Source: Escherichia coli (GTDB lineage Bacteria; Pseudomonadota; Gammaproteobacteria; Enterobacterales; Enterobacteriaceae). From it: a DNA stretch of 64,000 bases. This document shows positions 46,287-46,649 of the stretch, in pieces. The DNA lies in NCBI RefSeq assembly GCF_022846255.1, contig NZ_AP025682.1, one strand, 5' to 3'. The translations under genes were made by a program, and so were the position numbers. The notes beneath the pieces were generated by a model that worked only from the letters and a program-made list of their open reading frames with translations, had not been told where the DNA came from and searched no databases. Numbering within the stretch: the stretch's first letter is position 1; each line of letters starts with the position of its first letter.

Positions 46287-46357
46287 TTTTTTATATGTAA
46301 ACTATCAATAAAAAGCGTTATTTCATCATTATTTGTAATGAGTTGTGAGTGTTTTTT

Positions 46358-46462
46358 TTAAGACAGCAGTAATTCCTCGGTCACAGTAAATTTTTCTGCA
46401 AATGTCTGATAGAGTTGGGTTTGAGATAATTGACAATAATTGCTGACAACTGTAACCATCAT
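46358..46462 (-). CDS. Hypothetical 34-aa ORF with canonical SD (possible 5' stub of a deleted gene)
   Basis: Minus strand AAGGAG-CCT-ATGATG...; translation [34 protein letters not shown]; below ORF-track size cutoff. Confidence 0.3.
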
Positions 46463-46610
46463 AGGCTCCTTTTAGTTGCAAAGGTGGTGCTGAATCAAGA
46501 TAAAAAGAGGCAACTTATAGCTCTGAATATAGTGCATGAGGAGATGAATAAATATAAAAAATCGCTCAATATACCCGTGTGGGTGGATATATGTAGCGCG
46601 GGTTGCGATA

Positions 46611-46637
46611 ACAGGGCAAGTTTCGCCCTGTTTTTAA
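46611..46637 (+). terminator. Plus-strand terminator-like hairpin with no plus-strand gene to terminate
   Basis: ACAGGGC-AAGTTTC-GCCCTGT followed by TTTTT, just below the rbn stop; T-run is on plus strand, so it is not an obvious rbn terminator. Confidence 0.4.
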
Positions 46638-46649
46638 TAATAAGCAGAG

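Follow-up and report, generated by a model that had tools for sequence, protein, structure and literature searches.

At the locus examined here, within a 64,000-nucleotide stretch of the Escherichia coli contig NZ_AP025682.1 (hereafter the window, whose positions give all coordinates unless another locus is named), the gene order is nuoN (+), yfbM (-), yfbL (-), a gap, rbn (-), elaA, elaB and menF (+). The order in K-12 is rbn, elaD, yfbK, yfbL, yfbM, yfbN, yfbO, yfbP and nuoN, in agreement with the part of the map (rbn, elaD, yfbK, yfbL) that was given in an earlier reading made from the letters of the window alone (the sequence-only reading). The gap, 46287-46649, is 363 bp long and is bounded by the start of yfbL (46286, -) and the stop codon of rbn (46650, -); it contains, just where that reading had placed them, an AAGGAG-led open reading frame (ORF) of 34 codons on the minus strand and a hairpin followed by T5. 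Comparison with K-12 and with the loci of MRSN346647 (L003), a B2-type elaD-free genome (L005), O157:H7 NE 1092-2 (L007) and SCPM-O-B-8794 (L008) indicates that this interval is very probably a decaying remnant of elaD left by a deletion, and nothing found in the analysis contradicts this. The parts of the interval, its right boundary and the evidence for each are as follows.

46287..46350: yfbL upstream region, the left flank of the deletion, corresponding in yfbK-bearing genomes to the divergent yfbL/yfbK intergenic region (alignment)
46351..46360: deletion junction, in a T8 run (overlapping BLAST segments and three-way sequence display)
46358..46462, minus strand: 5' stub of elaD, 34 codons and TAA (ElaD identity, NF008812 match, pseudogene annotation, codon comparison)
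46466..46471, minus strand: retained AAGGAG Shine-Dalgarno sequence of elaD (sequence; same motif ahead of intact K-12 elaD)
46463..46649, minus strand: native rbn-elaD intergenic region of 187 bp, with the 3' flank of rbn and the promoter region of elaD (K-12 alignment)
46611..46637: hairpin ACAGGGC-N7-GCCCTGT, flanked by a plus-strand T5 at one end and by A5 at the other (folding; comparison with K-12 and 536)
46547..46598, minus strand: second hairpin (46598..46563) with AUUUUUUAUAUUUAUU after it, a candidate intrinsic terminator in the rbn sense, predicted from folding
46650..47567, minus strand: rbn (ribonuclease BN/Z), intact, the right boundary of the interval (ORF list and annotation of related genomes)

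The peptide encoded by the 34-codon ORF is identical to residues 1-34 of K-12 ElaD at 32 of 34 positions (94%, no gaps, BLASTP E 3e-18), and it matches NCBIfam model NF008812 (ElaD/SseL equivalog) weakly over model positions 1-29 (E 2e-5, 23.9 bits versus a cut-off of 250). An ORF of 34 codons in DNA of 35% GC is within what chance alone can produce, and this one is taken as real because of its identity to the 5' end of elaD. In Pfam terms, residues 30-138 of ElaD form the N-domain (PF22103) and residues 165-362 the catalytic domain, Peptidase_C48 (PF02902); the stub holds 5 of the ~108 PF22103 positions, the catalytic domain is wholly lost, and a Pfam search with the stub peptide matched no family. 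ElaD residues 35-403 are missing from the ORF, and the DNA for codons 38-403 is gone. RefSeq annotation by the Prokaryotic Genome Annotation Pipeline (PGAP) shows an incomplete "deubiquitinase; ElaD" pseudogene at the same spot in GPEC1356, SCU-115, M1/5, GN4738 and uropathogenic E. coli (UPEC) 536, and in A25 and DCE7, the genomes nearest to the window, the stub is annotated as a partial hypothetical protein. The stub is a fragment of the elaD gene and no functional member of the ElaD/SseL family (CE clan); judged from its sequence, it cannot act as a deubiquitinase and is most likely non-functional. The leading guess of the sequence-only reading, i.e., a 5' stub of elaD remaining after a deletion, is borne out by the ElaD identity, the NF008812 match and the ~1.42 kb of missing DNA described below, and the possibility it had raised that the peptide might resemble neither ElaD nor any other protein fell away once BLASTP matched the ElaD N-terminus.

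The deletion junction can be placed by aligning the two sides of the interval separately. Window positions 46200-46360 align at 91% to 3909-4070 of MRSN346647, a yfbL-elaD-rbn locus without yfbK, and positions 46350-46700 align at 96% to 5492-5843 of the same locus and at 95.5% to K-12 8001-8352. Relative to MRSN346647, ~1,421 bp (4071-5491) are missing, and the two BLAST segments overlap by 11 nt (46350-46360). At 46351-46360 lies a T-rich microhomology of 10 nt, GTTTnTTTTA (GTTTATTTTA in the left parent arm, GTTTTTTTTA in the right one); the junction sequences are GAGCGTTTATTTTATTACGG in the left parent, CGCTGTTTTTTTTAAAGACTG in the right parent and GAGTGTTTTTTTTAAGACAG in the window. On the coding strand the junction corresponds to the A8 run of elaD codons 35-38, and what the window retains is 110 nt of elaD coding sequence together with the 187-bp upstream region. 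Alignment to K-12 and to extraintestinal pathogenic E. coli (ExPEC), by which the sequence-only reading had hoped to find the breakpoints, yields this same junction in 536 as well. It is identical in all eight carriers examined (the window, A25, DCE7, GPEC1356, SCU-115, M1/5, GN4738 and 536), which points to one deletion event behind all the stubs examined.

The left flank also bears on the configuration that preceded the deletion. While it is 91% identical to the yfbK-less type, positions 46200-46360 show only 72.5% identity to K-12 4880-5039, and the yfbL-upstream flank of the window is 76% identical to that of the B2 type, so the immediate parent of the window locus was, on these alignments, most likely yfbL-elaD-rbn. 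The sequence-only reading was right that both elaD and yfbK are missing here, but their joint loss in one step is probably wrong, the closest intact relatives such as MRSN346647 being already devoid of yfbK. In MRSN346647 itself, RefSeq annotates a 44-aa "hypothetical protein" (4189-4323, +) over the joined 5' and 3' remains of yfbK, a deletion-scar ORF like the elaD stub.

The stubs have continued to change. Most carriers have a 39-codon frame ending in ...SLKKHS* or ...SLKKHL*, whereas the window, A25 and DCE7 have 34 codons ending in ...LLLS*, the shorter length resulting from a TTA to TAA change at codon 35 (Leu35 of ElaD). The changes in stubs relative to the intact allele are V6I, C18Y, Q33L and L35*, i.e., four nonsynonymous or nonsense and no synonymous changes in what is a small sample, a pattern such as relaxed constraint predicts. 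These data also bear on whether the AAGGAG-led ORF could be a genuine, maintained small protein of 34-39 aa, expressed through the promoter and ribosome-binding site that remain of elaD, which the sequence-only reading had offered as an alternative. Such a protein would fit the intact promoter region, AAGGAG and start codons in all eight carriers, the AAGGAG (46471..46466, -) lying 3 nt ahead of the first ATG and 6 nt ahead of the second, as well as the in vitro binding of RNA polymerase holoenzyme to the K-12 spacer (PMC3946193). However, the carriers differ among themselves in three C-termini and in length (34 or 39 codons), so that frame length is not conserved; none of the four substitutions is synonymous; the peptide has no Pfam family and is called a pseudogene by PGAP; and the neighbouring yfbL is decaying too in the window lineage. 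A maintained small protein is thus very unlikely, and the alternative finds no support in the variable C-termini and the lack of synonymous changes.

To place the loss of elaD in a wider context, we counted the locus types among 5,426 complete E. coli genomes. The contiguous stub junction (yfbL-stub-rbn) is present in 210 genomes, while any match to the 363-bp interval, which contains the elaD 5' end and upstream region, occurs in 4,488 and any match to a junction-spanning 141-bp query in 4,460. yfbK is present in 2,537 genomes. An elaD-free yfbK-rbn junction was found in 915 genomes, nearly all at least 99% identical; these include ATCC 11775, Nissle 1917 and JJ2434, in which yfbK abuts rbn with no trace of elaD. 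By subtraction, and hence as estimates and not direct counts, ~1,620 genomes would have the K-12-type yfbL-yfbK-elaD-rbn and ~2,650 yfbL-elaD-rbn. The elaD-negative E. coli are of two kinds, ~915 genomes with an apparently ancestral yfbK-rbn locus and no elaD trace, and ~210 with a remnant of gain followed by loss.

The elaD-free locus bears on the direction of change. L005 and K-12 are collinear through yfbK until ~27 bp before the yfbK stop codon and again from the rbn stop codon on, and between the collinear parts lie 144 bp in L005 versus 1,493 bp in K-12, with no similarity to each other. The K-12-specific segment has 36% GC (elaD, 0.354; neighbouring genes, 0.45-0.51), and the 187-bp rbn-elaD intergenic region has no homologue past the rbn stop in the elaD-free locus. 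Outgroup loci were gathered with Rbn; the matches listed included three outgroups but neither E. fergusonii nor the species representative of E. coli. In the loci so listed, E. albertii has rbn-yfbK-yfbL-yfbM without elaD, and in a Pseudocitrobacter genome yfbK lies 40 bp from rbn, again without elaD. L008, a divergent Escherichia (Rbn 92% identical), also has no elaD, its spacer being 87% identical to the B2 spacer and followed by yfbK remnants. These elaD-free outgroups, together with a low-GC elaD bounded at the rbn stop, argue that yfbL-yfbK-rbn is the older arrangement into which elaD was inserted. In L008, which is labelled E. coli SCPM-O-B-8794, the middle of yfbK has been lost independently (7916-8438), with ~124 bp surviving at the 3' end and a portion at the 5' end, which means that yfbK was deleted more than once in the genus.

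The insertion-like character of elaD—35% GC, absence from 915 B2-type E. coli as well as from E. albertii and the divergent Escherichia genome, and a boundary exactly at the rbn stop—could suggest that the 363-bp interval is itself the ancestral state and that K-12 carries an insertion of elaD and yfbK, an outcome that the sequence-only reading had named as contrary to its own proposal. Compared with the deeper Escherichia ancestor, elaD is indeed an insertion in K-12, but the window interval contains elaD sequence and is not ancestral: an empty ancestral site would not keep coding and upstream sequence of elaD broken off inside the gene at a microhomology, and loci truly free of elaD retain yfbK and have another spacer, of 144 bp and non-homologous. 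The alignments refute the interval as ancestral state, leaving it with hardly any credibility.

A history of gain and then loss of elaD on the window chromosome, in this putative order of events, would run as follows. From an ancestral Escherichia locus yfbL-yfbK-rbn, the K-12 type would have arisen in an ancestor of E. coli when ~1.49 kb of low-GC DNA, with elaD and the region upstream of it, took the place of the 144-bp yfbK-rbn spacer; yfbK would then have been largely deleted in many lineages, giving yfbL-elaD-rbn. One illegitimate recombination or slippage between two T-rich 10-nt microhomologies, the presumed mechanism, would have removed ~1.42 kb. Lost with it would be what remained of yfbK, the terminator between the convergent yfbK and elaD, and codons 38-403 of elaD, whereas the promoter region, Shine-Dalgarno sequence and first 37 codons of elaD would have been kept and joined to DNA upstream of yfbL. 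Later, in the sublineage of the window, the TTA to TAA change would have shortened the frame to 34 codons and yfbL would have been frameshifted as well. Several considerations weigh against this account: the ancestral elaD-free state rests on three outgroup genomes; the order in which yfbK was lost before elaD rests on the best-aligning extant configuration, and a single larger deletion from a K-12-type ancestor bearing the divergent yfbL-upstream haplotype is a possible alternative; and the argument from selection stands on four substitutions only.

The absence of elaD from part of the species is on record, as is the stub. Catic et al. 2007 (PMC1847702) reported no elaD in ExPEC and listed 536 and F11 as "No (pseudogene)", the pseudogenes of these two strains starting with a single-nucleotide deletion in an A-rich region followed by "sequence deterioration". 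In the strains of Wang et al. 2025 (PMC12575377), elaD is found in no B2 or G strains and in none of the sequence types ST73, ST95, ST127, ST131 and ST1193. The stub is therefore already known, being annotated and in print as the 536 pseudogene in what is available of Catic et al. 2007 (PMC1847702); what the alignments add is that the "deterioration" of the 536 type past the A-run appears to be a 1.4-kb deletion junction with yfbL upstream DNA. The window locus and the UPEC 536 pseudogene (ECP_RS11780) share their position between rbn and yfbL, the junction, the Shine-Dalgarno sequence and start, and the hairpin after rbn, but 536 reads 39 codons (...LLLSLKKHS*), while the window, A25 and DCE7 read 34 owing to the additional TTA to TAA change, have C18Y instead of V6I and carry a frameshifted yfbL. 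Compared with intact K-12 ElaD (b2269; NF008812; PF22103 and PF02902), the stub is 94% identical over residues 1-34 and the upstream 187 bp are ~95% identical, but it has lost residues 35-403, i.e., nearly all of the N-domain and the whole C48 domain. Finally, the elaD-free yfbK-rbn locus (the B2 genomes ATCC 11775, Nissle 1917 and JJ2434, and E. albertii) is like the window in having no functional elaD, which fits the absence reported for ExPEC and B2 in these surveys, but unlike it in keeping yfbK, in its non-homologous 144-bp spacer and in containing no elaD sequence. The elaD-free locus looks like primary absence and the window like secondary loss.

The hairpin at 46611-46637 had been described in the sequence-only reading as an orphan plus-strand terminator, but the deletion orphaned nothing, since K-12 and 536 have it with no difference in sequence, flanks included, and in the same place, past the rbn stop and upstream of elaD. 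The inverted repeat ACAGGGC/GCCCTGT (46611-46631), T-rich from there to 46637, lies 13 nt past the rbn stop and forms a stem of 7-8 bp with 4 G-C pairs and a loop of 7 nt, followed by T5 in the plus sense. Its RNA folds at -12.9 kcal/mol (z -2.25) in the plus sense and at -14.6 kcal/mol (z -4.27) in the minus, rbn sense; a clean T5 follows only in the plus sense, the minus sense continuing UUAUCGC. A consensus terminator scan of 46100-46800 did not call it, and as a plus-strand intrinsic terminator it is borderline. For the second hairpin (46598..46563), which in the rbn sense runs into AUUUUUU, the folding energy is -13.8 kcal/mol (z -3.13) with the window sequence and a weaker -8.3 kcal/mol (z -0.84) with that of K-12.

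Could this hairpin be the terminator of the lost plus-strand gene yfbK, stranded by the deletion? yfbK would lie on the plus strand in the orientation of the window, is missing here, and the T-tract does face the plus strand. In K-12, however, the hairpin lies beyond elaD from yfbK, 1.4 kb past the yfbK stop, at the same position relative to rbn; the convergent yfbK/elaD terminator is another hairpin (perfect 16-bp stem, -29.1 kcal/mol, z -7.3) within the deleted DNA; and in yfbK-rbn genomes the spacer has another hairpin, not this one. A stranded yfbK terminator was rejected on position and is extremely improbable. As the hairpin has no counterpart in the elaD-free spacer, it belongs to the segment that arrived with elaD, and it probably separates rbn from elaD transcription; the region as a whole is predicted to comprise the rbn 3' end and an rbn/elaD insulator, with the T-tract keeping antisense transcripts out of rbn. 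The hairpin should be labelled part of the native rbn/elaD intergenic region.

Other candidate elements of this kind are minor. The sole terminator-like site called by the scan of 46100-46800 is 46141-46166 (+), inside and antisense to yfbL, with a 9-bp stem, 3 G-C pairs and T5; it is probably a chance match, 0.5 such sites being expected in shuffles. In L005, the elaD-free spacer (8885-9004, 120 bp) contains a long hairpin (CTGTTTGCC...GGCAAACAG) and a second stem, folds with a z of -4.5 in either sense (rbn sense, -34.8 kcal/mol; yfbK sense, -29.4 kcal/mol), is 87% conserved in L008 and is presumably the convergent terminator of the ancestral arrangement. A search of 46200-46750 with Rfam 15 covariance models gave no matches at E <= 1 on either strand, i.e., no known small RNA or cis-element. 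There is no support for a gene in the plus-strand ORF 46430..46660 (76 codons, TTG start), which overlaps both DNA upstream of elaD and the stop codon of rbn.

The window locus is decaying beyond elaD. yfbL (M28 metallopeptidase; 45332..46286, minus strand) is a pseudogene in which an 8-bp deletion near 45700, seen on alignment with the intact yfbL of GPEC1356 and K-12, splits the gene into ORFs 45687..46286 (199 aa) and 45332..45706 (124 aa); a 1-nt loss removes the upstream yfbL ATG (ATGAAAAAAATG) used in other strains, and the yfbL of A25 and DCE7 is annotated as "frameshifted". The whole locus is decaying in the sublineage of the window. O157:H7 NE 1092-2 keeps a 407-aa ElaD and has a truncated and frameshifted yfbL (L007 3033-3650), which accounts for locus matches with 85% coverage in three pieces. 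Only 66 bp (44660-44725) separate nuoN from yfbM, and yfbN, yfbO and yfbP of K-12 (~2.6 kb) are absent, as they are from every other non-K-12 E. coli locus compared that covers this region (A25, GPEC1356, MRSN346647, O157:H7 and two B2-type genomes).

The segment 45300-47600 is itself divergent: only 2 of the 5,426 genomes match it at 99% or more, most matching at 90-96%. The idea that the window might come from a cryptic-clade Escherichia was rejected, the adjacent 20-kb nuo region (24000-44000) being 95-99% identical to all E. coli genomes (best matches 99.1%), so that the divergence is local. The yfbL upstream region exists as two deep haplotypes, 72-76% identical, which suggests old balanced or recombined alleles at the yfbL-rbn locus.

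Retention of the elaD promoter region means that the stub may be transcribed. A promoter was assigned to the K-12 rbn>elaD spacer by SELEX (systematic evolution of ligands by exponential enrichment) with the RpoD holoenzyme, with proposed hexamers TTAAAA-18-TGTTAT (Shimada et al., PMC3946193), and on the minus strand of the window these hexamers are the A-tract and tail flanking the 46611-46637 hairpin. An EcoCyc-derived sigma-70 start 60 nt upstream of the elaD ATG appears in a table of untranslated regions (UTRs; PMC4448311) and, transferred to the window, falls at ~46522. A sigma-70 consensus scan of 46100-46800 found no promoter, and a literature search on the rbn-elaD spacer found no mapped terminator or small RNA, only the SELEX assignment and the EcoCyc-derived 5'-UTR entry. 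yfbL lies 71 nt downstream of the stub on the same strand, the convergent terminator having been removed, and if the retained promoter fires, the transcript would read through the stub into yfbL. That such promoter capture rewired yfbL expression where yfbL is intact (536, M1/5 and others), with translation of the 39-codon leader influencing yfbL, we consider unlikely.

The finding has little significance beyond annotation and represents ordinary gene decay: the proper label for the ORF is a pseudogene fragment of elaD, not a new small protein. Published surveys, as far as their available text goes, score elaD as present, absent or pseudogene, without separating primary absence from secondary loss. 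Should promoter capture be true, the coexistence within B2-like E. coli of loci that never had elaD and loci that had and lost it would suggest import by recombination and then counter-selection of elaD in extraintestinal lineages.
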